64,000 nt of DNA from Tubulanus polymorphus (taxonomy: Eukaryota > Animalia > Nemertea), in NCBI RefSeq assembly GCF_964204645.1, contig NC_134026.1, positions 11,741,950 through 11,805,949 on the forward strand, read 5' to 3'. Under the pieces are notes generated by a model. The model saw nothing but the letters and a program-made list of their open reading frames with translations. It ran no database searches and was not told the DNA's origin. Shown here in pieces: positions 32,801-64,000 of this stretch. The translations under genes were made by a program, and so were the position numbers. Position 1 is the stretch's first letter, and every line of letters starts with the position of its first letter.

Positions 32801-35800
32801 AATTCCATGTTGTAGTGTTGTCATAAAATACGGCATCTGTGCACTAGCCAGCGTTTGGAGTGTATTTAAAATTTTTATCTTGTTAGGCCAGCCATAGGCT
32901 GAGCCTATTACTATACAAATGGAGGGATTAAATGACATGGTTTCCAGAGCTAAAGCCCTTTGACTGCGCAACTGAGCATTTATTCATACAAATCATTCAT
33001 TAAAGCATTTTCATTCTCCAAATCCTAGGGAGCTGAATTTTGAAAAAGGGCCTCGTTAAATTTATATGACCTTTTTCGTGAAAATCTGAACGCAAAATAT
33101 CAGTTTTGAAAAGCCATTCTGAAAGCAAAGACACCTCTATGATTGGCTTAGCCACAAAAATCAGCAGCTGTTCATGTGGCCCCGTGGTATCATCTGCTGT
33201 TTTACTTCTGGGTTTTATTTAAAGGAATTAAAATTGTATTTTTTTTGTATTTGTTTGGTTTTTGGGTGGAATTTTTTATTTGCACTACAGAAATCATTGG
33301 CAATGGATGTGCAAAACGTCACAGGTCTATGTGTACACATACAAGCTATTTGGCAAAATATCATTGACAAAGATGTAGAATGGCTCCCTGTGATTATATA
33401 ATGAGCTCTATTCGAACGACGAAATGTTATATTGCATTGAATATCATTAGAAGAAGTATTGTTTGATTATATCGGAGGCGGCAGGTATAAATAAAAATGA
33501 TAAGTAAATCGGATTATTCGGTCAAAATGGCGGATGTATACACGATTTGGAAGTCTGATATAAAAGCAAGACCCTGACATGGGTACATGAGGTCAATATG
33601 AAAATGTGTAAACATATAATTTCAATATTCAAAAATTTGTTCGATATAAGGGGTATGCAGGATTGATGAAATTAGCAATTTATAATAGCATAGCTGTCAT
33701 ATACGGCTCCAGTTCCTCTGATGGCATGTGTATTAGGTGACAATTCAATTCTTTATTGATCCTTATTGCCTATAAAATTCCGGGACAAAATTCCCAAATT
33801 CAATAAAGTTAAAAATCTCAAAATAAGAAAATACAACATACAAGACACACGCAGAATTCACACAGAATAACATAAACAAAATATTTTAAATGACAATGTC
33901 TACTTCAACCCACTCAAGAGGAATGTATGATGTAATGATGAACCAGACATTAGAAGAGCTCTTCCCTCAACCATGGAGGCAATGAAGTTGCAGACCAGTT
34001 TAGAAGCAAAAGTGAATGAAGTCGGTCGCAAATTATCAATTATCGACAATTTTCAATAAATAAATCAAATGAAACCACTACAACAGTCGAAGACCTGTAT
34101 CATCTACCCAATGGCCAAATCTCATAATTCCCCAAATTTCTTAAAACTTCGATTTCAAATTTGCGATTCCACATAAGCTTATCCCAAAAATTCTATATTT
34201 TCGCAGGTGTCAAATACTTTATTAAAATTATTTTTCTTGTTCTCAAATTGCATTTGCTCAAACTGAGAAAATTTCAGAAAATCCAGTTCAATTCTATTCC
34301 GCATTCAAATCAATAAGACCAAGGGAAAAGATTGATCTGAAGTATTTGTTCCTGCCAGCTCCCTGTCTGCTACTTATGAAAACACGGTTGTACTGTATGA
34401 ATTATAGGTATTGACTATGAGGGAGTGAATCTGACTGATATAACCCTCAGAATGCATTATTTGCCATTTATAGAAAGCTGACATGCTGGGCCACCTTCTG
34501 TTATCTAAGTTACTCGACTATAAGTCGAACTAAATGAAACCGAATGTCCGTTAGTCGGGACTAAATTCCGGAAATAGTTCGAAAATCAAGCGCATTTGGT
34601 TATTAGTTCCGACCACTAGTCAACTGGATATGAAAACCGAATTTGGCCCTGGCTATAGTGCCGCTTATTTTAATAGGGACCTGTAGTCTGACGTTTTTGA
34701 AAAAAGGCAGGTCATTTGTTTTAAAATCACTATAAATAATCACTGGAAATGATCCATATTTTCAAAATTTTCTTGGGCAACCCCCAAACCCCCTGCATTC
34801 TCATTCTGCATGTTCATATAGGGCCTACCATTATACAATGCCGCCTATGATGTTTCGCAACTTGTCTTCTATATTTCTCGCCATTGGTCTTGTTAACAGT
34901 TCATATGCCCATGGGTTAAATGTAAAGGCTACTGTCAGGCAAAATTCCATTACATTGAAACTTGGATCAAGACCTTTCCTAATACATGTTCAGGCTATTT
35001 TACCCCTTCGATTAAAGTGCTTTTGGCTCCCGGTCTAATAATCACAGCGTCTTCTTATAATTGTTATATTTCACCACTTTGATTGATTATACTAGTTGAT
35101 TTGGTTTTGGTACTTGTATTTTAGAGGTTAATGATAGAACGAGATTCATTGAAGGAAACAAATGAAGAATTGACGTGTTCACAACTATCTGGTGGTAAGT
35201 TTCTGGAAACGGCTTGTCACGTTTCATGCAGTCTCGAAGCTTCAGCATCTTACTAGAGCAAATGTTAGGATACTTTTGGGTCCCGCTTTATGCAGCAATT
35301 AGTCGAAATCCTGACCAACCCCCCATGGTTTGATGGACAATCAATGTGGTTTGTCTGACTTAAAGAGTCAAACATTCTATAGAACCATAGCAAAATTGCA
35401 CCAAGAAAAAAATTCATCCTTGAAAAAAGTTAGTACATTTCAGCTCTAAATTGATTTGGCTGATGTTAATTCAGCCTCATCAGGTATGATATACGATATG
35501 AACTATGTACACTGACTCTGACTCTGGCTCTGACTCTGATCGATTTGTCCCATATAGTCATTTGTTTGACAATATCTATTCATCTGAAATTGCATGATAT
35601 ACTTTCAATCTATAAAGAACAACATTGTGGGTGTAATGGTGTCCCTGGACCCCTAGTTGGTTTACCTATGCCATCACTTTTGAGCAGGTGCGTCCGCTTT
35701 TTGGTGGTATGGTTTTTTATGCTAGTAGTAGTGCCGATTTGTATGTGCGCAAACTGTCCATGACATGAGCGCCTAGCCACATGCAAAGAAGCGGGATCAC

Positions 35801-44800: not shown

Positions 44801-47800
44801 AGGGGCTCTTCCTTTCGGAAAAACTCGAAATGAATTCTTGGGACCAGTGGGAGGTTGTCTGCAGCAGGCAGCAACCCACTGGTCCGACCTTTTCGGAGAC
44901 GGTTGGCCCTCCCGGGTCGTCTCTCGTGGCTACCGTCTCCGTTTCCTAAGGCGACCGCGCCTGACGAGGTCACTTCCCGACATGCGGCCAAAACCAGGTC
45001 AGGAGGCCTTAATCTCTCCGGCTCTCAAGGAATTGGCCGAGAAGGGAGCGATAGAACCAGTTTGCAACGAAACTTCTCCCGGCTGGTTTTCTCGAATATT
45101 CATGGTACCAATGGCCACAGGGGGTCACTGGACAGTGATAGATCTGTCATCCCTCAATCGGCACCTAGACATTCCAAGGTTCCGGATGACCAAACCCAAG
45201 GACGTGATTCAAGGGCTCCGTCCGGGTCAATGGGCGGCTTCGTTGGGCCTGAAAGATGCTTACTTTCAGGTTCCAATTCACCCAAAATCTCGGCGATTTC
45301 TCAGGATAAAGTGGAAAGGCCGCCAGTTCCAATTCAGGTCTCATCCATTTGGCCTACGGCCCCGTGGGTTTTCACCAAGTTGGTCAAGTCAGTTCAGAAG
45401 GTACTCAGTCGCGAATTCAGCTCAGGAATGTCGGGAGGCAATGACCTCAGTCTTGGACTTAGTCCATCACCTAGGGTTCCGCGTAAACAGGGAAAAATCT
45501 CAGTTGACGCCGGCCCAACAGTTCACTTATCTCGGCATGGACTTCGATCTCCAAATCGGCAAAGTCTTTCCGTCAATGGCTCGAGTAGCCAAACTTCAAG
45601 AAGCTGTAGTGGGAGTGTCCACAACCCCGAGAACAGCTCGTTACTGGTCACGGCTTCTAGGCTCCATCAGCTCCATGGGTCTGGTGGTGCCCTTAGGCCG
45701 CCTCAGAAGCAGGCGCTTGCAACAATATTGGAAAGTCTTCTGGTCTCGGTCGAAGGACAACTGGGAGACCTTGATTCCCGTACCTCCAACCGATCTAAGT
45801 CCGGATCTTCAGTGGTGGGCGGCAACTACGAATCTTCGGCGCGGAGTGTCACTAGCCCCGTTAGAGGCTCCAGTTCGTGTATTCACAGATGCCAGTCACC
45901 AAGGATGGGGGCACATCTGGAGAACCGAGTCAAAGCCGGGAGATGGTCTCGCTACGAGGCCACCAACCACATAAATTTCCTAGAAATGCTGGCCGTGTGG
46001 AAGGCCCTGAAGTTCTTTCACAGGAGAGTGGAGGGCCACGTTTGGTTAGCCACAGGCAATTCAACAGTGAGGGCTTACCTTCAGAACCAAGGGGGCACTC
46101 ACTCAGAAACCCTCACGGGTCTGTCGGCCAAAATTCTTCTTTGGTGCCACACAAAGGGCATGTCCCTGACTGTGGCACATTTAGCAGGGAAAAGGAACGT
46201 GATGGCCGATGCTCTATCTCGTCGAGGTCAGGCTATTGCGACAGAATGGGTTCTCCACCAAGAAGTAGCCAATCTGGTTTGGGGCATGTTTGGCAATCCG
46301 CTGTTGGATCTGTTTGCCACCCGGTTCAATCGGAGGTGTCCTCTGTTTGTGTCCCCGTTTCCAAACGCGGAAGCGTGGGGGGGTCGATGCCTTCTCTCTG
46401 GACTGGTCGGGGATGCATGCATATGCGTTCCCTCCCACAACAGTCCTGCCGCGCTTGCTGGTTCGAGATCAGTCAATTGCAACATATTTCTGGTAGCACC
46501 ATGTTGGCCGGCTCAGAAATGGTTTCTACCACTTCTCAACCTACTGTGCGACATCCCCAGGATTCTTCCGAATTTCCCATCGCTTCTGTCTCAGGGGAAC
46601 TCTCGGCATCATCCAAACAGCCAGTGGTTAAATCTACTCACCTGGCCATTGTCCAGCGATCCTTGTCAGCTTCAGGCTTTTCAGAACAGGCTGCCTCCTT
46701 TATCGCAGGATCTAAGCAGCCATCAACAAGTACCATTTACGATGCCAAATGGGGTCATTTTGCGGATTGGTGTGCTGCAGGGGAAATTGATCCATGCTCA
46801 CCCTCTGTAGCTCAATTGGCAGATTTTTTACTGCACCTATTTGTAGTAAAAGGTTTGCAGGTTATAACTATTAACCCTTTCAGTGCGTCTACACCGCAGT
46901 GCGGTGTATAAATCAGTGATGGATTTTGCTAGTACACCGCACTGCGGTGTATTGATGTAATTAGTAATTTGTAATTATCTCTATTGAAAAATGGCAGCAA
47001 GTGTCAAACATAGTGAAATACTAGTAACTAACGATACACCGCACTATAGTGGTATTCCCATTGTTCAACACACTAGGGTGGAATTTTTTAGAATTTTCAA
47101 ATTTTCTCCAGCACTATAGGGTATTAATTAGTCAGCACTGAAAGGGTTAAAGGTTACCACTCCGCGATTTCTCATACATTGCGTGCTTCTGGACGGCCAA
47201 ATGTAACAGGGGATCATCGGATATCCCAGCTTGTTGCAGGGTTTTCTATTTCCCGGCCTCGAGTACCAAGGATAGTTCCACCATGGGATCTGTCTGTAAT
47301 TTGAAGAAGTTAATGGAGGCTCCTTTTGAACCTCTTTCGGCAGCGTCATTTGCGAATTTGTCAAAAAAGACTGTATTTCTGCTGTTCTTGGTTTGCTCGG
47401 CCCGTCGCTCTGAGATTCATGCGTTTTCAGTCCGACGAGGTCGTATTGTCTTCGGGCCAGCGGCCTGCTTTGGAGTTTTTGGCAAAGAACCAACGACCAG
47501 GCTCGTTTGGGCGTCAATGGCGAATGGTGAAGCCCTAAAACATCGAGTGGAAACGGGTCTTCCGGACAGGACATTATGCCCTGTGCGGGCGTTGTGTTTC
47601 TATTTAGATCGCTCTGCTCCACGGAGGGGTTCGCGGGAGCGGTTATTTATTCCGCTGCTGGATCACCTGAAGGGTGATATTTCTCGGGACACAGGGGCCC
47701 GATGGGTCTCTTCACTGATCAAGGACATTTTATTGAAGGAGAATCTTTCCTCGGAGGGAGTGGTTTCTCATCAAGTGAGGTCTATGGCTACTTCCTGCGC

Positions 47801-49614
47801 AGCCTTTTCAGTCGGAAGTCTGTCGGGCCGCCTTTTGGAATTCTCCATCGACATTCACGTCATTTTATTTACGGGATGTTTCAGGCCAGTTAGGCACATT
47901 AGCTTCACTCGGTCCTGTTGTTATGGCTCAAGGTGTCCGTTCTTTCCGATCGGACCCTTTAGCGTTGAATATTTATGTTGCATTATCAGGATCACAGGGG
48001 GTGTATCCATGTACATAGTTTGGGTTCATATTCGCAAGTATTAATTTCACAAAATTCAGGGGGGCCCTGAGCTGGACGGACTCACTGTGGCCAACCGTTC
48101 TTCCCTGCCCTACAGTGCTCCATTCCGTGCTTGGGTAAGTGCTCTCTTTTTTCCCGTTTGAGCGGTGGTTTTTCTATCTACCTTTCCCACCATCCTTGTG
48201 CTAGGCTAGTCTAGCAAAAACCATAGGAAAGGGTACAGTACTTGACGGAAATATTACAATTTTTGGAACTAAAATTAGTATTTCCGAGTAGTACTTACCC
48301 TTTCCTATGGTGGGAATCCCGCCGACCTGCCCTGCATAGCTGCTTTTTTTGGGTCTGCTATGACGTAAAAAGATGGCGGATTTCGCCGGTGGCTAAATGT
48401 AATACCGCAGGGCCGGGTCGTATAGAAAAACCATTGGCGATCAATCCAAATTTAGAAAATATTGGCAAAAACCATAGGAAAGGGTAAGTACTACTCGGAA
48501 ATACAAATTTTAGTTCCAAAAATTGTAATTTTCTTGTCAGCGGTTTGAACAAATAGTCAAATTTATCCTGTTGTGCAAATCTGCTTCGATTAGATGACAC
48601 GTGACTAGCAAATTATGATTAGAAGAATCAAATTTGATTTGACGTGATATATATACCTTTAGTTTTACATGAATACAGACATGGTAGGGTGCAATATGGT
48701 AGGGTGCAATCAATATACAGTTGAATTAGTACAGCTGTAGCATTTCGTGTAAATAATTTACAGCCTAAGTTTGTCCAATATAAAGTAAGAATTTAGTTAG
48801 CCTTGACCACTAAGTCAATATATGGACAAAATATGGACAGCCTGTAATGGAATCAAACAATATGATAACCATTAGAAATGCATAATACCTTAGGGCCCAC
48901 AGATTTCATACATATAACCATAATTCACCCCCTATCCTATTTGTCGAACTGTGGCAATCTTTATGGGGGACCTCTTTTTCATTACAGGTACTTTTTTGGT
49001 TCTGTCTTATGCCTCCAATGACATGTTGGTTGCCTCAGATTATCCTGTTCCTGGAATAAAGTGTTTAGAATTTTACCTACTTAAATTCATGTTATGACAA
49101 CCCATCATATCCTCCCCTGGCATGAATTTTAACTTTATGCCATCGTAAGACTCTGTCATGACAAGAAACCCTACCTTATCACTGTGAATGCGCGGGTTAG
49201 CTGCATGAAAACATTCAGTGCCTGTTTACTGATGCAAAGTCACAGTGAGGTAAATAGAGGATAAGAAAACCCAGGCTGAAATGAAACATTATTTCTGATT
49301 GGCTTATGTGACATTTTGTGCATTCAAGCTTATCAGACTGGGTTTGATGCCGTGGCCGAGTCTCAGCCTTTGCGCCTCAAGAGGAATATTTCTAGCATTC
49401 ATTATTTTTAGATATTGCAAATTACATGAGCAGAACACAATTGTAGTTATATTTCTGCACATATGAGTTATCCAGGTTTTTACTCTGGCATATTTATTTT
49501 TGTTTATAGGTGATACGTACATTAGATCCAAAATTTAATCCATCTGCGACACCAGAGGTGCAAGCATTGAGAAATCAGCTGCAGGAAAAAGATCGTCTTA
49601 TTGAACATTTAGAG
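2808..49614 (+). CDS. HOOK3: HOOK family microtubule-tethering/dynein adaptor (HOOK3-like), 17 internal exons; 5' and 3' exons outside window
   Basis: Exon phases are all compatible (1869 nt, 623 codons, no stop). Hook-domain motifs [20 protein letters not shown] and [16 protein letters not shown], coiled coil, [22 protein letters not shown]. Paralog naming is approximate (invertebrate Hook homolog). Confidence 0.93.
2985..3108 (+). CDS. HOOK3: HOOK exon ([14 protein letters not shown]...ILDYYAE)
   Basis: AG/GT bounded; conserved [13 protein letters not shown]. Confidence 0.93.
3291..5055 (+). mobile_element. Degenerate Helentron-like family A copy containing a nested family B element
   Basis: 5' TTTAGCCCACTTGGGACTTACGTCCC and 3' GGCATGGTGTCCTTCGACCCCTAGT. 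Confidence 0.7.
3865..5004 (+). mobile_element. Helentron-like non-autonomous family B
   Basis: 5' TTGGTTTACCTT, 3' subterminal inverted AAGGTAAACCA, then hairpin TTGCCCATGGGCAA and TT. Similar ends recur at 35657-36857. Confidence 0.6.
6226..6767 (+). CDS. CIDE-N (CAD)-like domain, 2 exons (6226-6322, 6559-6767)
   Basis: Spliced [64 protein letters not shown] resembles the CIDE-N pattern RPfrV...GL.a.s..ELl.Ka...DGT.Vd.EdFFq.Lp. Confidence 0.6.
6954..7805 (+). pseudogene. Degenerate ORF of the TIR element (coiled coil then Cys/His-containing region)
   Basis: ORFs 6882-7214 and 7293-7805 share one frame, separated by stops. aaacag acceptor ends at 6953. Confidence 0.45.
7796..8045 (+). repeat. 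125-bp direct tandem duplication spanning a Helentron 5' junction
   Basis: 7796-7920 and 7921-8045 appear identical; both end in TTTTTAGCCCACTT. Confidence 0.9.
8035..9290 (+). mobile_element. Helentron-like non-autonomous (HINE/DINE-1-type) family A, full length
   Basis: Inserted in T-run. 5' GCCCACTTGGG and 3' CCCAAGTGGGC subTIRs, 5' hairpin GGGACTTTAGTCCC, (TCCG)n microsatellite, internal 154-bp tandem units, 3' hairpin + CTAGT. Confidence 0.9.
9930..9981 (+). CDS. HOOK3: HOOK exon ([17 protein letters not shown])
   Basis: tgtag/gtacgt; matches Hook [10 protein letters not shown]. Confidence 0.9.
11392..11540 (+). CDS. HOOK3: HOOK exon ([23 protein letters not shown]...MHAIQE)
   Basis: AG/GT bounded; signature Hook motif. 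Confidence 0.95.
11632..11691 (+). CDS. HOOK3: HOOK exon ([20 protein letters not shown])
   Basis: AG/GT bounded, phase 0-0. Confidence 0.85.
13531..13922 (-). mobile_element. Penelope-like 3' end/pLTR, inverted copy
   Basis: Reverse complement of ~17274-17683. Confidence 0.85.
13586..13627 (-). ncRNA. Minimal hammerhead ribozyme-like motif (mutated) in Penelope pLTR
   Basis: CTGATGA-TGGCTGTTAGTCAACAGCC-AAAAC; canonical GAAAC changed to AAAAC. Confidence 0.5.
14179..14194 (+). other. Primer binding site (tRNA-Tyr 3' complement-like)
   Basis: TGGTCCCTCGAGCCGG, one mismatch from TGGTCCTTCGAGCCGG typical of BEL/Pao. Confidence 0.65.
15982..16766 (+). pseudogene. BEL/Pao pol remnants (RNase H C-terminal region and integrase core)
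   Basis: ORFs 15982-16488 and 16563-16766, preceded by a ~77-bp tandem duplication at ~15930-16083. Confidence 0.85.
16767..17683 (+). mobile_element. Penelope-like retroelement 3' part: GIY-YIG endonuclease remnant + pLTR
   Basis: GVYKIP...[16 protein letters not shown]...NHVFTTNH...ILE..LI...N.NTG with frameshift and stops. Confidence 0.9.
17587..17628 (+). ncRNA. Minimal hammerhead ribozyme-like motif (mutated)
   Basis: CCAC-CTGATGA-stem II GGCTGTT/AACAGCC-AAAAC...GTGG. Confidence 0.5.
17811..18111. mobile_element. MITE with CAGG...GGATCCAG / CTGGATCC...CCTG termini (hAT-like)
   Basis: Imperfect 15-bp TIRs; no clear TSD. Confidence 0.6.
18384..19060. mobile_element. Foldback MITE, ~190-bp TIRs, 7-bp TSD GTATCAG (P-element-like ends CA...TG)
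   Basis: CACAGGCACTCGCCGATGGG... / ...CCCATCGGCGAGTGCCTGTG; GTATCAG at 18377-18383 and 19061-19067. Confidence 0.85.
19255..19338 (+). CDS. HOOK3: HOOK exon ([28 protein letters not shown])
   Basis: AG/GT bounded. Confidence 0.92.
19543..19637 (+). CDS. HOOK3: HOOK exon ([14 protein letters not shown]...SDSLDDP)
   Basis: AG/GTAAGT bounded. Confidence 0.92.
19823..21086 (+). mobile_element. Helentron-like family A, full length
   Basis: Same termini and 154-bp units as 8035-9290. Interrupts a GTATAAGTC/GACTTATAC-type MITE remnant. Confidence 0.9.
21302..21381 (+). CDS. HOOK3: HOOK exon ([26 protein letters not shown])
   Basis: AG/GT bounded. Confidence 0.9.
22443..22507 (+). CDS. HOOK3: HOOK exon ([22 protein letters not shown])
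   Basis: AG/GT bounded. Confidence 0.9.
22713..23269. mobile_element. Tc1/mariner (pogo/Tc2-like) MITE, TA TSD
   Basis: TA|CCGTAAAAACCGGCGTATAAGTC ... GACTTATACGCCGGTTTTTACGG|TA perfect TIR. Confidence 0.9.
23386..23512 (+). CDS. HOOK3: HOOK exon ([23 protein letters not shown]...YKKKM)
   Basis: AG/GTAAG bounded. Confidence 0.93.
23591..24683 (+). mobile_element. Helentron-like family A, diverged copy
   Basis: Family termini and three 154-bp-type units. Confidence 0.85.
25056..26024. mobile_element. piggyBac-like non-autonomous element
   Basis: TTAA|CCCTTTCAATACCAC ... GTGGTATTGTAAGGG|TTAA. Confidence 0.85.
26176..26261 (+). CDS. HOOK3: HOOK exon ([29 protein letters not shown])
   Basis: AG/GT bounded. 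Confidence 0.93.
27360..27880 (+). mobile_element. Helentron-like family A internal fragment
   Basis: Matches central part and units of family A. Confidence 0.75.
29699..29863 (+). CDS. HOOK3: HOOK exon ([19 protein letters not shown]...KRADKLDFE...KEKE)
   Basis: AG/GTAAG bounded. Confidence 0.93.
31448..32721 (+). mobile_element. Helentron-like family A, full length
   Basis: Family termini; four CCAGGGGGCG motifs spaced ~154 bp. Confidence 0.9.
32883..33290 (+). repeat. Interspersed repeat (partial copies at ~38550-38730 and ~56850-57150)
   Basis: Shared TTAGGCCAGCCATAGGCT... and GCAACTGAGCAT...CATTCATTA...GCTGAATT blocks. Confidence 0.65.
34489..34648. mobile_element. Harbinger-type MITE with CTG TSD
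   Basis: CTG|GGCCA ... TGGCC|CTG with extended imperfect inverted symmetry. Confidence 0.65.
35125..35194 (+). CDS. HOOK3: HOOK exon ([23 protein letters not shown])
   Basis: AG/GTAAGT; conserved [13 protein letters not shown]. Confidence 0.93.
35657..36857 (+). mobile_element. Helentron-like family B-type element
   Basis: 5' TTGGTTTACC, 3' GGTAAACC + GCCCATGGGC hairpin. Inserted at the CTAGTT end of a family A fragment. Confidence 0.55.
36961..38031. mobile_element. piggyBac-like MITE with nested insertion
   Basis: AA|CCCATTAGCACTCAA ... TTGAGTGCTAATGGG|TT; TTAA sites degenerate (TCAA/TTAT). Confidence 0.7.
37112..37795. mobile_element. hAT-like MITE with 6-bp TSD CCTATT
   Basis: CCTATT|TAGGGAGGAAA ... 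TTTCCTCCCTG|CCTATT. Confidence 0.7.
39708..39789 (+). CDS. HOOK3: HOOK exon ([10 protein letters not shown]...MNIPPEV)
   Basis: AG/GT bounded; phases 1/2 fit neighbouring exons. Confidence 0.8.
39877..40017 (+). CDS. HOOK3: HOOK exon ([15 protein letters not shown]...ESEN)
   Basis: Conserved [13 protein letters not shown]. Confidence 0.93.
40083..40380 (+). CDS. HOOK3: HOOK exon ([10 protein letters not shown]...[14 protein letters not shown])
   Basis: AG/GTAAGT; conserved C-terminal motif. Confidence 0.95.
40520..41256 (+). mobile_element. Helentron-like family C with 133-bp tandem array
   Basis: subTIRs AGCTCTGCTGTG / CACAGCGGAGCT, 3' hairpin AGCCAATAGGCT, GTC/GTT microsatellite, ~4 units of 133 bp. 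Confidence 0.75.
42662..44833 (+). pseudogene. DIRS gag-like ORF (N-terminal Cys/His finger, SR-rich linker), frameshifted
   Basis: DNHDSC..C...[10 protein letters not shown] spread across frames; ORF 43715-44833. Confidence 0.75.
44834..46810 (+). pseudogene. DIRS pol: reverse transcriptase, RNase H and DNA N6-adenine methyltransferase-like domain
   Basis: [68 protein letters not shown]...DAFSLDW...YAFPP; several frameshifts. Confidence 0.9.
46660..47950 (+). pseudogene. DIRS tyrosine recombinase, split by MITE and frameshifts
   Basis: [15 protein letters not shown]; [10 protein letters not shown] after MITE removal; [20 protein letters not shown]. Confidence 0.9.
46875..47146. mobile_element. 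piggyBac-like MITE inserted in DIRS YR
   Basis: TTAA|CCCTTTCAGTGC ... GCACTGAAAGGG|TTAA; precise removal restores the YR frame. Confidence 0.92.
49510..49614 (+). CDS. HOOK3: HOOK exon ([35 protein letters not shown])
   Basis: AG/GT bounded; conserved VIRTLDPK.N...[11 protein letters not shown]. Confidence 0.93.
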
Positions 49615-50685: not shown

Positions 50686-51899
50686 GGGAATATCTGGTGG
50701 ATATCTATGAAACTTGATGTGAGAGTTAAGACAGGTTTATCTGCGTTCGACTTCAAGTCTTACAATGTGGGGGGATTGCGTGGGGTATTTGAGGCCGCAA
50801 GGTGTAACTATAGTTTGGATTCAGATAATTCTCTCTGACTTGAAAAGATGTCAGACTGTGATGTTTCTAATCATTCAATTTGAACTTCTGTATTAAAAAA
50901 GAGTTCTACTATGTGAAAGAAATTTATTTGAAAAAACAGAAAATCTTCTCTAGACTAAAGTGTTTATCCCACTTACATGGATCTGATAGTTTACTGTATA
51001 TCTGAAATTGATTTATTTGTTTGCTCTTAGAGGGACCAAGACCGCATAAGGAGCTCACGGGAACAAGAAGAAAAGTTGCTGGTATCTGCATTTTATAATC
51101 TGGTGAGTAAAGGAGACAATGTTGTCCAGTACTATGAATCCATTTTCTTCTGAACATCTTTATACAAGGATATACATTGATAGAAATTCATCTATCCAGA
51201 TTTCACAATAGATTTTACTTCAACTTATCGACTGAGATAATGTGACTTAACTGTATCAATGACAATGTTTTATTCAAGACTATGCTACGAGGTACCACCA
51301 GGCAAAACCCCAAATACACATTTAGGTGGCAGCACTGTACACATGTAGTATATGTAACAGAGATAAGAATTCCACGGCAAACCGTAGTTTTTGTACCAAA
51401 AAACATTTTTTTCAAAATAGTTTTAAAATAATGTAATAGTTTAAGGGGGATGATGGTGTCACTGACCCTGTCTGGTGCGACTGGTAATTGGGCTTGTCTG
51501 TTGCAATTTGTAGTCGGGCGACCCTAAAAGCGTTCAGTGCCTGTTTTACAAATCATCACGCATGTTGCTTTTTATTTCACATTTACCGACCTATTTCAAC
51601 ACTGATTTAAAGGGGTCATGAAGAGGTTTTGAAAACAAATTTTAAATCAATTTTTTTGGGTAAAACATTTACCGTATGCATCTTTAGTAGTCTCACGAAA
51701 AAAATTTTTAATTTCATTATCCAAACTCGAGAGAAGCCCGCAGCAACCGGACGCTCGCGTTTGCGCGGTGATGTTGATGGCTTTCCCTAGTGACCCACAT
51801 CGCTGTAGTGTGTACAACATACTGGCTGGCTACGTATGTATGCAGCACACATTACTACTACACGGGACGGTGCAGGCTGGGATACTACTGGGAATCAAT

Positions 51900-53155
51900 A
51901 TAACAAATTGGAGAACAAAAAGTTGTGAGGGGAGAAACCGTTATTCAAATTAACACTATTTCCCGAGTTTTCAATAATCAGAGCTGATTCCATAATGTGT
52001 CGTTTAATTTTTCCGGACAGTGGAAAATTATGGAGGCATTTTCAAAATCAAAATTGTTGCTGGTTTCGTATACGTGATTGGCAACACCACTTACAGGCTT
52101 AAAATTCTTTACATCATTTCTATGTTCACGCATGCGCTTGTGTAAATCGCGCCCGGTTTCACCAATATATATTTTATTACAAACTTTACAGGGAATTTTA
52201 TATACACCAATCTTCAGGAGTTCAATTTTGGGGGAGTTACGAGTAAGATTATGACTAAGTTTGTTGTTATGAGTAAAAATGAGTGAGTAAAAATGAGTTG
52301 TTTATTTAAGAGATGGAGGGGTTTTAGATTTTTCCAGAAAAGGAACAAAAGGTACAACAACAGGCTGTTTACGCGCGCGGGTCACTTGAGAATGACAGAA
52401 ATGTGAACGATGGACTCTCAAGAGAGCTTTATCCAAAATGTCGTCGGGGGGGGGGGGGGGGGGTTGAATATGCTATTTTATTAATAGAAGTCTTGATCTG
52501 GGTTCATTCATCATCCAAGAAAAGAGGGGCACAAATCCTAAGCGCACGAAGGAATAAGCCTTGCGCAACACTAAGTTTAATGTTGAAGGAGAAATAATGC
52601 AGGTATGATCCAGAGCGGGTAGGTTTCCTATAAACTGATAATTTTAAACAAGACAAACAATTGTGAATACAAACATCAAGGAAAGGGATTATCCCATCAA
52701 CTTTCAATTCAAATGTGAAGTTCAAGGAGGGATAAAAAGAGTTAATAAATGTGAGAAATAGATCAATCTCAAAGTTAAAAGGTAGAAGCACAAGAATATC
52801 ATCAACGTATCGTAACCAAAGTTTAGGGGGAGTATCCGTGTCAAGAGGTAGTAATTCAGTTTCAACATGTTCAAGGAATAGATTCACTAGAATGGGACTA
52901 AGCGGGTTCCCCATAGCCATGCCAAAAACCTGTTCGAAATATGAATTGTTGAAACTAAAGAAGGAGTTCTGAGTGCAAAGTTCAATTGATTCGATGATAC
53001 AATCAGTGGGAATGTCAAAATTAAAATCCAACGAAGGAAGTTTACGTTTAAGAAAATCCAGGGTAGGCCTAAGAGAAACATTGGTGAAAAGAGAACTAGC
53101 ATCAAACGAAATGAATCTATCGTTACCAGGAATAATGTGTTTTAACCGTTCTACT
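51900..53155 (-). mobile_element. Penelope-like retroelement, RT + GIY-YIG remnant
   Basis: SFDASSLFTNV, QVFGMAMGNPLSP, WLRYVDDIL, IPFLDV, VYRKPT; GVYKIPCKVCNKIYIGETGRDLHKRMREH. Confidence 0.92.
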
Positions 53156-53581
53156 TAATCTTGGTTGTGTCGTAAATGCGAGGGGGAGAAAGAACAGGTT
53201 TGGAATGGGCTCTGATTATCGAAAACTCGGGAATTATGTTTATTTGAATAACGGTTTCTCCCCCCACAACTTTTTGATATCCAAATTTCTCGCGTTTCTT
53301 GTACCCCCGTTATATTGACTCCCTCCATTAGGTGCCTTGAATATCGCTTGCTTGTTTCCACTCACTCCCTGATTATCGCCTTTCATGTTCCTTCTCTTTG
53401 TTTTCATCTGATTACCCCTTAGCTTGTCCTCACGTTTTAATCACTTTAGTTTGTGTCTTTTGTTTTTAAATTACTTTAATCTATATTGCCCTTAGTTTGC
53501 CTTTGCTTACTTTACTATTGTTTTCCAGCTGTTCTGTCCATGCTTTAATCTATTCCCCTTTCGACATTTTAATCACTCACT

Positions 53582-54625
53582 CAGACCTGCCAATTGTTAT
53601 GATTTTCCCGTAATCGTTACGGATTGACAGCACAAATTATGGTGTTACGAGTGGGTGCTCAAAAATACGATTTTAGTCTATTTTCATTACGTTTTACGAA
53701 AAACTCAAGCAATGTTACGTTTCTTAAAAAATATGTCGCGAATGAAGTTTAAACAGGTTGATTTTATTATCGGAAACTAAAATAGGAGTTCTTAGCACAG
53801 GCCACTTGTTCTGCTAGTTGATGTACACGCCAAGCTTCCAATCAATATCGCTGAGTTACACAGGCCGCTGGCATATACGTGGTTTCCTGCACGCACTCAA
53901 TACAGTACATCTATCAGCTGGCTGTCAACGGGGCAACCTGCTACTATTGATCTATTGTATATACTCTCTGCTGTAAAAATAATGACAATTGCTTGCAGGC
54001 GTTGAATCATTTTTTGGAAGTAACCTGACTAAGTTAATTTATTTGTATATCAATCGATGATTCTGCGTTATTTATTTGGTCAAAATGAAAAATAAATTAG
54101 AAAAAGAATATTTCTTAACAACGACCTCTCACCGCCAACCAGACGCATCGGTTCTCTGCTGTAATCAGTGTGTCTGTACATGGCGGGTACCGCGACCAGG
54201 ATTGCAATGATTTAATAGATTTAGACGTCATTTTAAGTGATGAACCTAATCAATAAGGAACCGGCAACAAAGAGAAGGAAGCCCACCATTTTGAAGATAA
54301 TGCACTGTTAAGTTTCCTTGCATGAATGTTTTGTAGAGGCTCACACTCACACTTTTTTTGTACTGACTAGTGACGAGTTAAGTATTAGTAGCGTTAGGAG
54401 TTGACAATAATAATCTACACGTCTCATGCCGGTATTACAAACGTACAATATCATATCGACAATTGAAATGAAAAAACACAACGCAAAATCAAGTAAAATT
54501 AACCGTTTTTTTGTTCAATCCAGCGCCATATTATACAGTACACGCTTGTTACTGAAAAGCTTCAGATATTACTGAAAATTTATGATATTGTTCTGATTTA
54601 GTCAGACACGGGGTTGGCAGGTCTG
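53582..54625. mobile_element. hAT-like non-autonomous element with 6-bp TSD CTCACT
   Basis: CTCACT|CAGACCTGCCAA ... TTGGCAGGTCTG|CTCACT. Confidence 0.85.
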
Positions 54626-54684
54626 CTCACTCTGTTACTATTGTTTTGGTATTGTATAAAAATCTTGTAATATTCTCCTGTTCT

Positions 54685-54724
54685 CACCTGATGATGGCTA
54701 ATAGTCTTTAGCCGAAGCGTTGCG
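54685..54724 (+). ncRNA. Minimal hammerhead ribozyme-like motif (mutated)
   Basis: CTGATGA-TGGCTAATAGTCTTTAGCC-GAAGCGTTG. Confidence 0.5.
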
Positions 54725-54794
54725 CAAATATATATATACTCTTCTATTCAAGTTTCTTGTTTTGGCTGAATTTATTGTGGGATTTCTCTCGTTA

Positions 54795-55537
54795 GGTGAG
54801 ACAGGTATTTTTGATCAGCCAATTATCAAGCAATTGGTGGCCATCTTGGTTTCATCAGTATTCATTCGTAGGTGGAAATAAGTTTTTCCACATTATATTG
54901 ATACCTTAGCATATTCTGTTACCACAACCAATTGGAAAGTTGATTGGTTTTTGTATGTGGCCACCAAGGGGCGTTGAATAAAATAATAACTTAGTATTTT
55001 GATATTACATTGGTACCTATGCATATTTTGTTACCACAATCAATTGCAAAGATATCGCTCATGACATGGTACATGGTTGTGGTGAGTTTCAAGGTCATTA
55101 GTTGTTCTATATGGTCACCAGGGGGTGTTGAATAGTAGAATAACTTATATTGGTACCTAGGCATAATATGCCTATATATATATATATATGGTGACAGAAT
55201 ATTATTTTGTCACCATAATTGATTGCAAAATTGTAGCTTATGACACATTCTATGTTTGTGGTGAGTTTCAAGGTCATTGGGTTTTGTATTGGTCATCAGG
55301 GGCATCGAATAGTAGAATAACTTAGTATATCCATACCATATTTGTGCCGAGGCATATTTTGCTATCACAATCAATTGCAAAATTGTAGCTGCTGATATTT
55401 CTAAGATTGTGGTGAGTTTCAAGGTCATTGGTTTGTGTATATGGTCACCAGGGGACGTTGAATATTGAAATTTTTTGGTGATTGTTGTCAATTTGAAACC
55501 ACTTTCCAAGTGGGCATGGCGTCCCTGGACCCCTAGT
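54795..55537 (+). mobile_element. Helentron-like family A, 5'-truncated
   Basis: 154-bp-type units and intact 3' terminus ...CCAAGTGGGCATGGCGTCCCTGGACCCCTAGT. Confidence 0.85.
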
Positions 55538-57502
55538 TTGTCAATAGAATTCATGTACATGCCCACAAATAACTGAATACTCTTTGAGCTGTGGTAGGAA
55601 GGAAAATAACATCAAATCTAATTCAACTCTATTCTGCATGGAGTTTAATGAGATGAGGAAAAATTGATCCTAGGTATTTTTTCCAGACTGTTACTTTAAA
55701 AAACATGATAATGCTGTGTGAATTGTATTGAAGCAGAAAGTGTATTTTGTCACATATAATCCACAAATTGCAACATGCATGAAAATCAAATATCACTGAC
55801 TGGCCGTTGTCCACCTGCTCTTGTTTCAAACTTAATACAGAAGTATGCCAACAGTGAGTTGTATCGAAAAATGATGTGAGCGTGATAGAGCCTCCAATTC
55901 TCCACACATTTTTGGCGGACCATACGTTTGCCTATGCAAACAGTCTGGTGAAGCAGTTTTCATTGAAAATGAATTGAGTGTGTCAACAAGGCACAAACAT
56001 TGACTATTGTACCAATAGTGTTGATTTTTGGTTTTATGGTTTGACTTAATGAGTTCTCGAGCCCACAAAAATTTCATAGTGATCGAGTTATTTTTAGGGG
56101 ACTTATTCTTGAAAAACATGTAAAAACCCTGCTTTTTAACACTATATAATGACACGTTTTTACATATGACAATTTGCATACTTGGAATTGAAATATGTAA
56201 AAATTCAATCCCTCCTGGAAGTGTTGTTGTTTTTTGTTCGACTGATCTTCATGTACTTTTCGACCTACAGGCCCTCACTTTATAAAGCCCCTTAATTTTC
56301 TCGCTTCTATTTATTTGAGTTGACCTTTTAACCTGAGCTACAATGAATGTGATTGGCTGTTTGTGGGATATATGGGAAATTCTGGAAATTTCGGCGCTTC
56401 TGCTGTAATTGGGAAAGCCTATTGGAACCCAAAACAAAATAGAGCATTTCATTCGGCTAGGTATCGTCTGTTCGCTTATAATTTGTTCGTTGTTACGAAT
56501 ATAAGCAAGTAGGCTATTTAATTCAGTATATGAACTAGCAAGTATGATGATACCAATGGCAGGGTTCGTAGCGGGTTTTCCAAGTGGGTATTTATTTGTA
56601 TATTTATGGAAAAAATCGTAGCCAGTATTTGCTTTGATTTCCATGAAAAAAACAAACAAAAAGTCTGCATATGTTTGTATTTTTTCACATTTTGTGGATG
56701 GATGGATTCTGACTTGTGAAATTGCAGTCAATCTATTAATACTGCGTTGCTAATACATTTGTAGGCCTACAGTATATGGCTGTGTGTTGGAAATTACCTG
56801 AGCGAGTCTATAGATAGGCAATGATAGTATACACAGCACTCTCACTAACTGTGCAACTGAGCATATACTCATACTAATCATTCATTAAAGTGTTACCCAT
56901 TCTCCAAATCCTAGCGAGCTGAATTGTGAAAAGATTAATATGAGTTTTTTTCCCGCAAAAATCTGAACACAAAAATATTGGTTTTAAAAAGCCAATCAGA
57001 AGGCAAAGACTCCCTTAGCCGCAGAAATCAGCAGGTGTTCACGTGAACACATGTTTTACTTCCAGGTTTTATTTTAAGATTTAAAGTTGTCTTTCAAGAT
57101 TGATTTCTGTGAAATCGTAAGTTGATTTGGTTTTTGGGTGGAATATTTTTATTTGTAAAATAGCATTATCTCAAATCGCATGGATGACCTTGATATGGTT
57201 ATTGGCCATGTGCTCAAACTGCAAATTCAATCAAATTTTATATTGCAAAAATATTCAATTTCACTTTATTGAACAAATAAAACATCAAATCCAATTCAAT
57301 TTTGTTTTATTGATCAAATTTCTGAAAAATTGGTTTTCTTCCCAATTCAAATAAATAAGACCAAGGGAAAAGATTGATCTGAGGTATTTTTTCCTGCCAG
57401 CTCCTTGTCTGTGCTACTTATGAAAACACAATTGCACTGTGTAAATTATAGGCATTGACCAGGTATAGAATACATGCAATATGAGCTCTTGCGCGAACTG
57501 TT

Positions 57503-57735
57503 ACTCGCGCGAGCATTCTACGAATTCAGCGCTTTGCGCGAGGTGAAACTATCGACGGGAGCCGTTCGAGTACGCGAGCTTTAAACTCGCGCGAGCATTC
57601 TACGAATTCAGCGCTTTGCGGGAGGTGAAACTATCAACGGGAGCCGTTCGAGTACGCGAGCTTTAAACCACCACTCCGCCCCGTTCGAGTGCGCGAGCTT
57701 TAAACCACCACTCCGCCCCGTTCTAGTACGCAAGA
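57503..57735 (+). repeat. Subterminal tandem repeats (2 x 82 bp, then ~2 x 37 bp) rich in (G/A)CGCGAG
   Basis: 57503-57584 ~ 57585-57666; 57667-57703 repeated. Confidence 0.9.
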
Positions 57736-58538
57736 TTTTTTGAGAACATTTTTATACGCAAATACGATATTCAGATATTTTATGAACATGTTTGATGAAC
57801 ATTTTACGCCTAAGTTGCACGGATTTAGGAAAACCCACAACCACGTATATTCATGATGAATCATCATAGGCCTACGACGGTACTACAAGTAATGCTGAGA
57901 TCGTCTCAATTGATTGACGGATTGCCATAAAAACAGCAATTTTTATTTCCCGATCTTACTTTTCTGCAAGAAGTCATAAAAATTATCTTTGTGCATATAT
58001 ATATATATTTGAAATTTTGAATAATGCGTTATATAGAAAAATGGTTTTCATTTAAAAGATAAAAAATAAAAAACCACCGTCCTCGACGTTTCCAACTAAG
58101 CCGCGAGTTTTCAGTATTTTTAACTTACACAGCTCGTAGAATCGTATATTTGTTAATCGTGGAATCAAGATGCAAATTGTGGTGAATTTTAGTGGGAACT
58201 AGACGCCATGATGAATCATTTAACCCTCTAACTTGATTAGTTATTTTTGTATTTGGCTCGGCGAACTAATTTAACAAATTAATCCTAAACAAAAAGACAT
58301 ATTTTGCAAATGTAGTGGGAACTACTAATTTTTAGTAGCCGCCGCCGCAAATTGTGACTGAATGATTATGCCCCTAAATGCGTAATTAGATTAAACCATA
58401 CATTGTCATCTCTCCCTGATTTTCAATATAAATTCTTAAGCCTTGAATTATAAACCTTAATATACATTCAACCTTCCAAACGAAAAGACTACATTTTATA
58501 GCTCCTTGAAATACATTCCGATACGTACACGTGTGATA

Positions 58539-60282
58539 ATGAATGCTGCGGCGCGTAAGGCATGGCAACAGGTCGAAAAAGCAGTTAAAAGATACGCGGA
58601 GGTGACCAAAAACGAAGTTGCAGCTTTGTGTTTTTTTGAAAACCGATCCCAAAAGATTGAGAGTGTTTTGACTGGGACTAGCGATTTAATGCAGGAATTA
58701 ACCGAAAAAAGTGGCGAAATCTTGGAGAATATGAATAAAAGAAAAGGTGATGACCGTGATGGAGTGATATTGTCATGTGAAAAACTTTGCCTGCCGGATG
58801 TGAAGAAAATTTATGGAAGATCATTATGCGATTTGAACAGCAATGAAGTTCGAGGACTTTGCGCTAATTTAGTATTCACGAGCAGAAAACTCTTAGGAAG
58901 GATAGGTAACAATCCGAAATGGGGTGACGAATCGCAACGTTTACCCTGGTGGCCTGAAACACTGGAATGGAAAAATCCCCGGTGTGATTTCAGACCAAAA
59001 AATCAGCGTGATATAACATTTGCAGAAGCTATACGCAAAGTTTGTGGAGCTGCATATCAGTTCCATGAAGTATCTCAACTAGCCGGTAAGTTTTTTATGT
59101 AATAATATTTAATGACATTATTTTTTTCATGAGGCCTTTCATATAGTTCGAACAATTAGAATACATATAATTAGTATCTTCAAGAAGTGATATAAAAGCG
59201 GTGGATAAATTTAATATCATAAACTTATTTACCTGTGAACCTAATTTAGCAAACTAAGGGAGCAGTGAGATATGACCATCGTAAATTTAACTAAATGCAT
59301 TTAATTTTAGACTGCCTTTTTCATGATTAAAAAAGTTGGTCTCAATATACATGTAACAATGTTGAAATATATGTCCACTTCTCAACAGGCGATGACATTC
59401 TGGCAGAACTGACACGGCTTTCAGAAAATTCGTCATTCGTTTCTGTATTACCAGCACCAGTTGAATTCGCCGATGTACCAGAGACTGAATTCGCAGATGT
59501 ACTAGAGACAAGTAAGTAACACAGGAGACTTGTTTGACATTAGTTGGGCTATTTATCCTAATGTTTTGGATGTTCAAATAATAACTAAAAATTCTAACAT
59601 TTTTCCAAACTGCAGCAAGATATTCTTTACAGTATATACAAATACATTTTTCTGAGTTAACCTTCAAAAATCTAAAGTTCTGATCTATATACATGTCGAT
59701 ATTCTAAAAATTATAAAAATGTATGAATTCTATTACGAAAATAATGTAAATTATTTCTTTGTCTACGTATTTTAGCCGAGAGCTCGTCATGTAACCCAAG
59801 TGCTGTCAATCATCTGCCTCCATCATTTCAACTCGGCGAGTCCATGATTATGGAAACAATTGAAAATGGCAACATCAGTGACATCTTGAAGCTGAACGTA
59901 ACAGAAATATCAGGTAAATAAATACATTAATGCCTAATAACATTTTTCTTCAAAAATCTAAAGTTCAGATCTATATACATGTCGATATTTTAAAAATTAT
60001 AAAAATGTATGAAATAATAAAATTCAACTTATGAATGAAATTATCAATTAAATAATTGTATGAGTTCATGAAATAATAATTTTCTAAATAGCCAGGATGA
60101 ACGAATATGATGGACCTGAAATCCTAAGCAGCACAACAGATGATGTTTATGAAGACAGTAGCTCGAAAGGTGATAAAGCCGTCAGCAAAACATCAATAAC
60201 AACAGAAACTAAACGCCCTAACAGGAAGAGGAAACCAACAGAGAAAATGTCTGAGTACTTGAAGAAGCGCAAAGTTCTGTAA
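58539..60282 (+). CDS. NRF1/Erect wing/P3A2-like DNA-binding protein, 4 exons, 332 aa
   Basis: Exons 58539-59085, 59389-59511, 59776-59913, 60092-60282 (999 nt, in frame, GT-AG). PKWGDESQRLPWWPETLEWKNPRCDFR...FAEAIRKV...YQFH parallels NRF1 PGWGKESCKPIWWPEDIPWANVRSDVR...WTQALRTIV...YKQH. Basic NLS-like C-terminus; AATAAA at 60294. Confidence 0.8.
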
Positions 60283-60364
60283 ATACATGTATCAATAAAA
60301 CAATTAAAATATTCATATTTCCTTGATGTTATAGAATCAATATTTGAGGAAAGGTACTTTATCA

Positions 60365-63288
60365 CTACGATGCATTAATCTTCTGTTTCTTATCCCTATT
60401 CTTTATTGTTAAAAACAAAGCAATGTTACGAACAAAGTTTTCAGGTTTCATGTATGCAAGCTGAGCTTTTAACCTTACAATGCCAGCATTAGCTTGTTCA
60501 TTGATTTGAGTATTAATGCTGTGCAGGTCAACATTGGACTTGTATGTATCTAACTTGTAACCTTCACAGCATCCAACATGATTCTTCCAATGCATACGGT
60601 CAACACAGAACATAGTATCTTGAAAAAACTGTGGTTCCCTAAAAATCATATAAAAGAAAGTAAATACTTTAAGAAATAGAATTATTTCTAAATAAGGTCA
60701 CGTGCAATGAGATATTTTACTATTGCGATTACAATTATTTGTTTTAAAAAAACATACCGGTTCAAGCTATACTGATGTAGGCGACAGGCATTGTCATATA
60801 CAATAACTTTCGGAGCTTTTGCAAATCTTGTTTTGAAGATGCTAAAAGGGTGCCTGGGAGATTCGTGACTCTGCATAACCTAATTAATAAAAGTGGATAG
60901 TTTATTTCATACATGAGTGTAGTTAAAAATTACACTGATCAATTAAGTTAGGCATTAATAACTTTAAAACACACTGTATACATAATTTAAGATGCAATAA
61001 TAAAAATAAATTAAATAATAATTTGTTTTTAATCTTAAATCCTGTATGTAGTAGGTTTGAAACTTATTATCTGTTCTCCACATTGAGTGGTAATTCTACT
61101 ATTAAGTTAGACACATACCTGGAAACCATAGTTAACACCATGCGAACAGAAAACTGTGAAGATGCCCGGAGTTAACACCCAGTGAGTTTTTGCATACTTG
61201 TTACAACTATCACCTCTTCTATATTTAACACGGTCATTCTTTGCATCCATTTCGTAGTTTCCGTCTCTAAAATAATGAAGGGTCAAATAAATCAGGTATA
61301 TTTACAATACAATTTTACTTGTTGCATAATTACTGTTTCACTAATTATTACCTGTGTAGTTTTGGGAGACAGGGAAAAAACTTAATGTATTGAACAGATC
61401 TTCATTTGTTGATTCCTGCAGCACATGCTTGGGATAATCAGATACCTGCAAGAAAAAGTAAAGTTCATGCTATCATGGAGTTAACTAGTTTTTCAATTTA
61501 TAATTTTTAATTTATTATCACATAATGTACCTGGAAGCAGACTTTGGCACGTTGAATAAGATCCCTCAGGAAACCAATACAATACTCATCTAATCTACCA
61601 GTAGACTGTCTGATATTCTGAATGTAGTTGTGTATAATAGGTGCACATCTTATGAGCTCGCCTATTTCAGCATGGTTTTCGCTTTTAAAAAAATCAGTTT
61701 CAGCAGAAAGACATCTTTCGACTAGAGCAGCATTTGTATGAAGTTCGTTGACTGCACAACTGCACAAGCTGGTCCATTGCATGATGAACACTCTATCATC
61801 ATGTTTACTCCCAGAAGTCACAGGACTATCTGCAGATATTATAGGCTGAACATCTTGCAATGAATGGAACAAATCCTTACGAAAACCGAGATCTACACCA
61901 TCGCTTATTACCACGCTTGGGTAATCTTTACAAAGTGGACAATGAAACTCTGATGTCCAGTTGAAATCGAGAAGTCGCATGAATGCACTCCAACTCTTTT
62001 GCAATGTGTGCCGCGGTATTACTGATGATCTTAGTGAAATATTTGCGGATCTCTCCAAGCTTCTGGAATAAATACACAATCAGAATGCAAATGTCTGGTT
62101 ACTTTCTCCATTAGTTGTTGTATATTATTGAAAGTTACTAAATAAACAAACCCCAACTACCTTTGATATGATGACAGGGGATTTCTAGCCTCAGGCATGC
62201 CATGCAGATATTTGAACAACAGTCTGTAATCTACCAGTTGACAGTTATTAACATTCAACAGTAATTCCCTCTGTCCATCAAAGAAGAACTGACAATTACA
62301 ATCACCGATTGATGGTCGATTATTCACTGCAAAATAAATATCATTACTTGAATATTAAAATAAATTTCATGGGATAAAGTTTAAAAATGTGTCAATACTT
62401 TAAATATATGTACATACAGGCTCGTACATACCATTTATTCTTTTCAAAACACCACCAAGCAATGTGAACTCCTGGCTGCCTGTTTCATTAAATACAGTGG
62501 CCTTTTTATCGAAACGCCCATTCATCAGAACAGGATCGCGACAATCCCACGAAAAATTATGAGTACATCTTGACTCTGCATCAAAAATAGGCACAAAATT
62601 CTCTGGGTATGGCATGCCATACATTCGGTTCTGTAAGACCATCTGCAGTTCAGTGGGTAGCGGATAAGAAATAAGATGACGTGACACTACCGACATGCTT
62701 GTGTGAATATGTGAAACATTTGATAACGGAGGCTGAGGTTGTATGCCCTTTTCATCACACCAGTCTTTATACATGTTAACATCAACACAATTTGAATTGT
62801 ATTTGCATGTTTCACAAATAAAATGCGCCATGCGACCGCTCCACTTAACAATGTTCACTGACTGTTGACAGGTAGCAGAAATTAATATAGGCGCTTGCGA
62901 CAGAATATGGATATCTGTTCCATCAGCTGGCCACACACACATTTCTATATCCCTGTATAACATAGTTATGGCAAAGCAATGCTTGCAATAATTTGCTTCA
63001 CACCGGACCTTAAACTGAGAGATTGCTTCCGTTAAATTTTTGTCCAATGACGATAATTCTTTCATGCGCCCGTATCCAACGGGACAGTTACAATTTAATA
63101 TCGAGCACTCTCCATCCGCCGAAAAGTATCGCAATTGCTTCTTTACAATGAAATGTTCGTTGCCATCTGCCAGTACAAAGACTCCAGGAAATAAATCCCA
63201 GTATTCTTTGTTCTTTCTTAAAGTCATCAAATATATCTTATTTTCATCCAACGGACATTCTATGTGTACGGTTGTGACACTTGGATTA
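60365..63288 (-). pseudogene. KDZ/Zisupton-type (HMGXB3 C-terminal-like) transposase with SWIM and CxC-type Cys clusters, multi-exon
   Basis: Exons 63288-62432, 62326-62161, 62062-61531, 61445-61352, 61266-61119, 60879-60758, 60638-60365. Motifs CNC...CKH, FHCPLC...VISDG..LG, CNK...LTPGIFTVFCSHG, ESP, YDNACRL, VDRMHWKNH, NTQINEQAN. One apparent 1-nt frameshift near 61372; upstream exon(s) degenerate or outside window. Confidence 0.85.
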
Positions 63289-64000
63289 CTGAAATAAAAA
63301 AATATAAATATATATATATATATATAAATTACTAAATATTAAAAATAAATAAATAAAACATTTTTAAGTTTAAAATCAATCATCCTGGTTTCCACATGTT
63401 TTACTCAGGATCAAACATAAAAAATGAAAAAAGAAATACATGCGTGAAAACAATGTCATCACAGAGGTCATTATTTCGGATAATCCCTTCGAGCTGAGCG
63501 AGCGAGCGCTCGAACTACGACGACAACGCCCCCAATCGGCCTCTTTCTGTTTATCATTTGATTTCTATAAGTCACAGAGGAAAGCTAAAACAATCCTATT
63601 CTGGATACAGTTAAATTTCTGGTAAGTTGATTCAATATAGCTACAAACCTGGTTTTATTTTGTTGCGAGCGCGATTTCAATGACATTGACAATTATTGGC
63701 TTTCTACTCGACCGTCACCGGTCGTTGTCGTTGTTGTTGCATCATCGCCACCTTGCTGACGATTTTCAAATAATCCTCTTCGACGACGTTTCTTGCACGG
63801 CTGCTTTTTCTCCTCTAATTTTTGTTTTTTTTTAACAATCCACGTGGCTTAATCGAGGCATAATTATTCATATAAATATCTAAAGTATGCACACGGAGAC
63901 GTGACGTTCACGCCGCTTTCTTAGCTTGTGATTGTTAAGAGTGCCATAAACTGGCACGGCAGGCTTGTGTTGCCCTGTTAGCACGCGGACTAGGCCAAAT

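Follow-up and report, generated by a model that had tools for sequence, protein, structure and literature searches.

A gene resembling NRF1, a conserved animal regulator, lies beside the gene for a KDZ transposase in a 64,000-nt stretch of the nemertean Tubulanus polymorphus genome (NC_134026.1, positions 11,741,950 to 11,805,949; hereafter the window). KDZ transposons are poorly understood and the recognition of their ends is an open problem; a first-pass annotation of the window, made from the sequence alone, proposed a two-component element in which a separate NRF1-fold protein recognises the ends. The analysis reported here identifies the same two-gene arrangement in related elements, very probably assigns the NRF1-like gene to the transposon, and points to the subterminal repeats of the element as candidate binding sites for its product.

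An NRF1-like gene beside a KDZ transposase gene

The plus-strand gene (the partner; Table 1) is intact, as the first-pass annotation had read it, with a stop-free open frame of 332 aa across four predicted exons, introns of 303, 264 and 178 nt that are all GT-AG, and acidic stretches in exons 2 and 3. Exon 1 matches the Pfam family Nrf1_DNA-bind (PF10491) at profile positions 54-208 (E 3.6e-11; 43.6 bits, the cut-off being 23.5) and the human NRF1 chains 8k3d (E 1.9e-7) and 8k4l (E 7.4e-7) in the PDB, bearing out the proposed likeness to the NRF1 DNA-binding domain. When 1.84 billion representative sequences were searched by phmmer, 39 matches came back, every one belonging to PF10491, with short divergent proteins and not true NRF1 at the top, including XP_070541359.1 (Ptychodera flava) and XP_074659467.1 (Tubulanus polymorphus). 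ESM Atlas hits, taken as leads, are in agreement. Neither exon 1 nor the long transposase exon gave a match in word-index protein searches, and scans of metagenome and viral contigs with NRF1-like or exon queries gave no confirmed relative.

A structure model of 58539-59084, folded on a 37-row alignment rich in true NRF1, reached a pLDDT of 91 and matches the NRF1 dimer 8k4l (Foldseek E 4.7e-8; Z 14.0) and the NRF1 DNA-binding domain 8k3d (rmsd 1.8 over 100 columns), the Z values against NRF1 being 14.0 and 13.3; its first 67 residues match the SRF MADS box (Z 7.0), a likeness also reported for NRF1 itself (PMC10810270). The partner is accordingly modelled as a predicted NRF1-like protein with a MADS-like dimer domain, through which it would dimerise, and, after it, a DNA-binding domain. 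Its residues R105, N146 and R148 occupy the columns of R206, N242 and R244, the base readers of human NRF1 (PMC10810270), at an identity to canonical NRF1 of 18-20%, compared with 53-75% for six canonical proteins among themselves.

Several observations stand beside these matches. Tandem NRF1-type DNA-binding domains, two or three per protein, occur in the database proteins P0008 and P0012 (Macrostomum lignano and unnamed records). The DNA-binding domain (model residues 89-178) has weak fold matches to GTF2I repeats (Z 5.2) and plant EIN3 (Z 4.7), with Atlas and Pfam leads linking it to fungal YDR124W-like proteins; although all within chance range, they hint in three separate ways at a wider family of folds. 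A 66-nt segment of the partner gene is duplicated at 97% identity, with one copy in intron 2 (59662-59727) and the other in intron 3 (59948-60013).

The minus-strand gene, whose stop codon lies 82 bp from that of the partner as first described, reads as a KDZ transposase, putatively of the CxC4 type, with probably eight exons and one frame break. The seven GT-AG exons and named motifs of the first-pass annotation stand, and are supplemented by a probable eighth exon with an ATG and by the break itself. A search with the last exon matched a single protein, P0052, which passes the Pfam KDZ (PF18758) cut-off and is 39% identical to the spliced window transposase over 263 aa (E 3e-51), upholding the KDZ assignment; PF18758 matches none of the individual window exons. 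The DxxH and E motifs recur through the transposase alignment (in 38 of 40 and 36 of 38 rows), and the CxC4 scores in Pfam all fall below the cut-off, in the window exon (Table 1) as in the related loci L065 (E 2.6e-5) and L073 (E 5e-4). As regards the Zisupton, Kyakuja or Dileera subgroup, the transposase tree was composed of unnamed loci only.

With plain splice sites the transposase frame is off by one base near 61368-61380, so that the gene is either broken or mis-assembled in a homopolymer, and this copy is probably inactive as written. An acceptor two bases further would keep the frame open; the spacing of FP..P.......Y.MD in P0052, judged by eye, favours the frame break, and BLAST does not separate the two readings (169 against 168 bits).

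Recurrence of the gene pair

Related loci were collected with the transposase pattern YDNxCxLHx[YF]xLN alone, with no NRF1 input. The scan gave 89 loci: 77 from metagenomes, 1 viral and 11 on genome contigs that are intron-bearing, eukaryote-like and assigned by binning to bacterial genomes. Of the 89, 82 match the window transposase and form 44 families; the other 7 were excluded from the family count. An NRF1-type profile was then run over all six frames of the loci, most of which lie on contigs too short to include a neighbour. An NRF1-type gene adjoins the transposase in four of the 44 families, and in three of the seven families with long flanks on both sides. The partners are those of L031/L018/L023 (tail-to-tail; E 5.5e-8 in L031), of L004/L006 (tail-to-tail and split into exons; E 2.9e-4 in L004, 38% identical to the L031 partner), of L086/L088 (head-to-head; E 2-3e-8, 2.8e-8 in L086) and, weakly, of L079/L080/L082 (tail-to-tail; E 0.016-0.06, 0.06 in L079), against best reversed-decoy values of E 0.034 and 1.1 in the partner searches. 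Candidate partners at L015/L073 (E 0.69) and L083 (E 0.085) were discarded as noise, and 81 selected frames from other loci held no NRF1 match. The tail-to-tail layout described for the window thus extends to four of the five families, the window included, the fifth being head-to-head.

A profile built from 22 canonical NRF1 proteins, with no transposon sequence in it, and scored on predicted splice models, ranks the window partner at E 2.8e-16, followed by L086 (7.2e-10), L031 (1.3e-4), L004 (6.5e-3) and L079 (0.038), and a WWP core is conserved across the partners at about 20% overall identity. In genome G001 (16 Mb), matches to a divergent NRF1-type profile are confined to two element copies; the same profile found no match in G002-G004. 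Both a profile and structural match to NRF1 and co-occurrence with KDZ transposases at other loci, on which the first-pass annotation had staked its proposal, were found, the latter in four other families that include elements with both ends and target duplications. By sequence comparison, the KDZ/NRF1-type pairing in the window is no local accident, and the NRF1-like gene very probably belongs to the element.

The partner of L079 (10686-14983, in G002) is of a composite kind, apparently a DNA reader joined to deubiquitinase-like and histone-methyltransferase-like domains: OTU, PHD and SET exons occur in the convergent partner gene of this KDZ subgroup, at L079, L050, L039, L010 and L047. At L083/L085 (about 7500-11700), a KDZ remnant lies in an AT-rich stretch, around which the DNA is gene-dense and GC-rich, near-identical between two binned genomes, and has flanks that do not look bacterial.

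Element ends and mobility

The older repeat interrupted by the insertion ceases to match at the element border (Table 1), which was corrected from 57461 to 57460. The junction begins CAGGTAT, the reverse complement sense of the ATACCTG end in relatives, either end motif starting at 14 of the 64,000 window positions; a 6-base match to the old repeat (TATGAG, 20 nt inside the junction) was dropped as an alternative end, CAGGTAT being the end of the family. The element is present once, with one end inside the window and the far end beyond it. HOOK exons at 11313-51150 cover the Pfam profile to position 476 of 514, and a motif search of 51150-64000 found no last HOOK exon; the insertion interrupts the older repeat as first described, and its placement in the last HOOK intron is presumptive.

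Complete relatives supply both ends. The L086 element spans 5,442 bp, with imperfect inverted repeats of ~620 nt and an 8-bp duplication, and its two copies were counted once because their flanks are common to both. Dispersed copies are demonstrated for the G002 element, three copies of which (41,080, 44,930 and 44,941 bp) differ in their flanks. Their duplications measure 8, 7 and 7 bp, and both 7-bp ones become 8 bp if the end is taken one base shorter. Both families start GAGCTAT and finish ATACCTG, the two ends being slightly asymmetric. The shared end CAGGTAT, together with the recurrent pairing in these traced relatives, indicates a two-gene KDZ lineage.

In the giant copies of G002 (contigs C89 and C64; loci L079, L080, L082 and L112-L117; 41-45 kb), an 11.5-kb array built of 180-bp units lies between the ends together with other repeats, and two of the copies have a 7-kb extra insert in common.

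Evolutionary history

The transposase closest to that of the window is L086 (58% identity). A tree of MAFFT-aligned transposases, built on 34 of the 40 rows after removal of six that were short or broken, does not unite the five partnered ones in a single clade (p-AU 0.021). The partner domains fall outside the 22-row canonical NRF1 group, in which a sponge protein is included (support 95/97), and nesting of the window group with one canonical protein (P0014) is rejected (p-AU 5e-5); the comparison with true NRF1 orthologs that the first-pass annotation had called for thus speaks against orthology of the partner. Partners have diverged to 17-27% identity, against up to 58% for the transposases, and both trees are unrooted with long branches. 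On these alignments the KDZ/NRF1 pairing looks old, and a recent capture of NRF1 by the element is unlikely, since the transposon-borne domains lie outside the canonical group.

Whether NRF1 was derived from, or taken by, a transposon is a question that the element raises. Animal NRF1/Erect wing as a tamed transposon protein is considered doubtful; under such an origin, an old and diverse family of MADS-like plus WWP proteins would have served as end-binding partners of KDZ transposons, and one member would have been retained early in animal history as a host reader of GCGC promoters.

What the partner protein may do

Just inside the end of the element lie repeats with YGCGCGA motifs (Table 1). 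All seven YGCGCGA matches in the window fall within 300 nt of the element end, where the GCGC density of the window also reaches its maximum (7 per 300 nt). The L086 partner has K/H/K at the base-reading columns, and the ends of its element have 0 GCGC and 10-11 TTCCA each, with repeat arrays at both. This pattern of residues and motifs fits a partner that reads the ends of its own element. It is reasonably likely, by analogy with the Myb-like protein of Harbinger, that the partner binds the end repeats, and the best explanation, judged moderately probable, casts the element as a cut-and-paste KDZ transposon with two genes, the second of them for a predicted NRF1-fold protein; as a dimer that protein would likely bind the repeated motifs just inside the element ends, here the GCGC-type repeats at 57490-57738, and, once bound, likely help the transposase to assemble there.

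A number of observations weigh against this explanation. The GCGC count is reached by 230 of 1000 dinucleotide shuffles of the CpG-rich end region, the full NRF1 palindrome GCGCATGCGC is absent from the 64,000-nt window, and the match of residues to motifs draws on two or three families. The structure model drew on an NRF1-rich alignment, a single-sequence fold giving a pLDDT of 39.5. The L079 and L004 partner matches are weak and below Pfam cut-offs, and the lack of a divergent-profile match in G002 means that the L079 partner was missed there. Four of the seven well-flanked families have no detected NRF1-type gene, so that many KDZ elements either move partner-free or have a partner too divergent or split to be seen. 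The NRF1-like domain of L079, finally, apparently heads the OTU-PHD-SET gene, an arrangement that fits a role in chromatin equally well.

That last point leads to the alternative that the partner, although encoded by the element, acts on transcription or chromatin, binding the element promoter and keeping the element expressed in the manner of the TET/JBP cargo of fungal KDZ elements (PMC12730594). NRF1 is itself a transcription factor (PMC10810270), the acidic exons 2-3 would suit such a function, the partner ATG has the GCGC repeats 0.8-1.1 kb upstream, and homologs of the L079 tail adjoin KDZ genes at L050, L039, L010 and L047. Yet the repeats are 30-280 nt from the element end, and L086 has arrays at both ends, only one of which could be near a promoter; as a sole account this role is rated rather unlikely, and it is compatible with end binding, the two not being mutually exclusive. 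A neutral cargo gene or chance neighbour would agree with the four well-flanked families in which no partner was seen, and with the amount of DNA that big KDZ elements gather, satellite arrays among it. It is very unlikely given that the partner is kept in five families whose transposases are not one clade, in two orientations and with the WWP core conserved, that its frame is open here though the transposase is broken, and that no stray copies occur across the 16 Mb of G001. A sequence-reading dimer could also, instead of binding the element, guide it towards particular host targets such as GC-rich promoter sites, and the four traced 8-mers and the predicted window one all begin with G; this copy, however, sits in an AT-rich intronic repeat, GCGC-free at the junction, and the motifs are inside the element, which leaves such steering highly improbable.

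End binding with help to the transposase, the preferred explanation, would connect mobile DNA with a core regulator of animals if the partner indeed grips the ends, and the combination of an NRF1-fold partner, element-specific residues and repeats makes it testable. The fold of one conserved animal regulator also occurs as a fast-evolving transposon family, and database proteins named 'Ewg-like' (e.g. XP_070541359.1) may therefore be transposon genes.

Features of the window

The features of the insertion are collected in Table 1. Elsewhere in the window, a DIRS-like retroelement, marked by split inverted repeats, frames for reverse transcriptase and one recombinase-like frame, lies inside a HOOK intron (42322-48539), and a Myb/SANT-like frame on the minus strand (1604-2098; Pfam E 4.7e-15) may represent a Harbinger-type element's partner gene. 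A dispersed repeat of ~1.2 kb, containing three or four 154-bp units, occurs six times or more in HOOK introns. Inverted-repeat elements of 0.6-4.2 kb occupy 13499-17715, 18384-19060, 22711-23271 and 51905-53287; the last contains a reverse transcriptase frame, and the frames of the first are presumably BEL/Pao-like.

Table 1. Positions of the insertion, its two genes and a dispersed repeat in the window
Feature	Position	Strand	Basis
Older repeat cut by insertion	57316..57459	+	84% identity to 34269-34415 across 149 columns, the match ending at 57459
Predicted target-site duplication, 8 bp	57452..57459	.	From the 7-8 bp of relatives; second copy beyond window
Element end, reading CAGGTATAG inward	57460..57468	+	At repeat break; first 7 bases equal L086 and G002-copy ends
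Subterminal repeats, 82-bp and 37-bp units, YGCGCGA motifs, palindrome CTCGCGCGAG	57490..57738	.	Candidate partner-binding sites
NRF1-like gene exon 1, MADS-like dimer domain and NRF1-type DNA-binding domain (predicted)	58539-59085	+	GT-AG; Pfam, PDB and model matches
NRF1-like gene exon 2, acidic	59389-59511	+	Predicted splice sites
NRF1-like gene exon 3	59776-59913	+	Predicted splice sites
NRF1-like gene exon 4, stop and basic tail resembling a nuclear localisation signal	60092-60282	+	Signal putative, from sequence
KDZ last exon, DxxH, NEQAN and stop	60365..60638	-	49% identical to P0052
KDZ exon, YDNAC	60758..60879	-	Motif
KDZ exon, GIFTVFCSHG	61119..61266	-	Motif
KDZ exon with one-base frame break (about 61368-61380, homopolymer run)	61352..61445	-	Predicted splice sites
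KDZ exon, CxxC and likely first catalytic Asp (ISDG)	61531..62062	-	Asp role putative
KDZ exon, CxC4-like cluster	62161..62326	-	Pfam CxC4 E 0.012, below cut-off
Long Cys/His-rich KDZ exon	62432..63288	-	Weak tblastn to L086/L088 N-terminal region; no Pfam family
Probable first KDZ exon with ATG, 38 nt	63649..63686	-	In phase with next exon, GT donor; prediction only
Copies of ~1.2 kb repeat	8032-9296, 19820-21092, 23592-24688, 27483-27947, 31445-32727, 54797-55543		

Comparison with known systems

Among the matches listed in a literature search no pairing of KDZ with an NRF1-type gene was found, Repbase, Iyer 2014 and Bohne 2012 (which may mention it) lying outside the search; the accessible parts of PMC12730594, PMC12062965, PMC10810270, PMC11343200, PMC9297572 and PMC9179366 contain no NRF1-type partner. 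Target duplications of 8 bp are given for Zisupton and Dileera and of 7 bp for Kyakuja (PMC12730594). The closest counterpart is KDZx1 of Cryptococcus deneoformans, a CxC4-type element with two ORFs in 6.4 kb and 8-bp duplications, whose second protein is called unknown (PMC11343200). The window lineage has in common with KDZ/KDZx1 the KDZ core, a putative CxC4 cluster, many exons and duplications of 7-8 bp, the last predicted for the window copy, and differs from KDZx1 in its NRF1-type second protein and its slightly asymmetric ends GAGCTAT...ATACCTG.

PIF/Harbinger elements likewise pair a transposase with a separate, fast-diverging DNA-binding protein; their Myb-like protein binds both the element ends and the transposase, and diverges far more than the transposase does (PMC9179366), a pattern that the partner repeats. 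They differ in transposase family, in their 3-bp duplications and in the Myb/SANT fold of the second protein, and end binding is demonstrated for Harbinger (PMC9179366) whereas it is proposed for the window element. In comparison with NRF1/EWG/P3A2, the partner is without the basic stretch at the N terminus, has no match to the Pfam domain of the activation site and sits inside a transposon, and it shares with these regulators the MADS-like dimer domain, the linker, the WG..P.WWP..W.N.R domain and the base-reading triad (PMC10810270).

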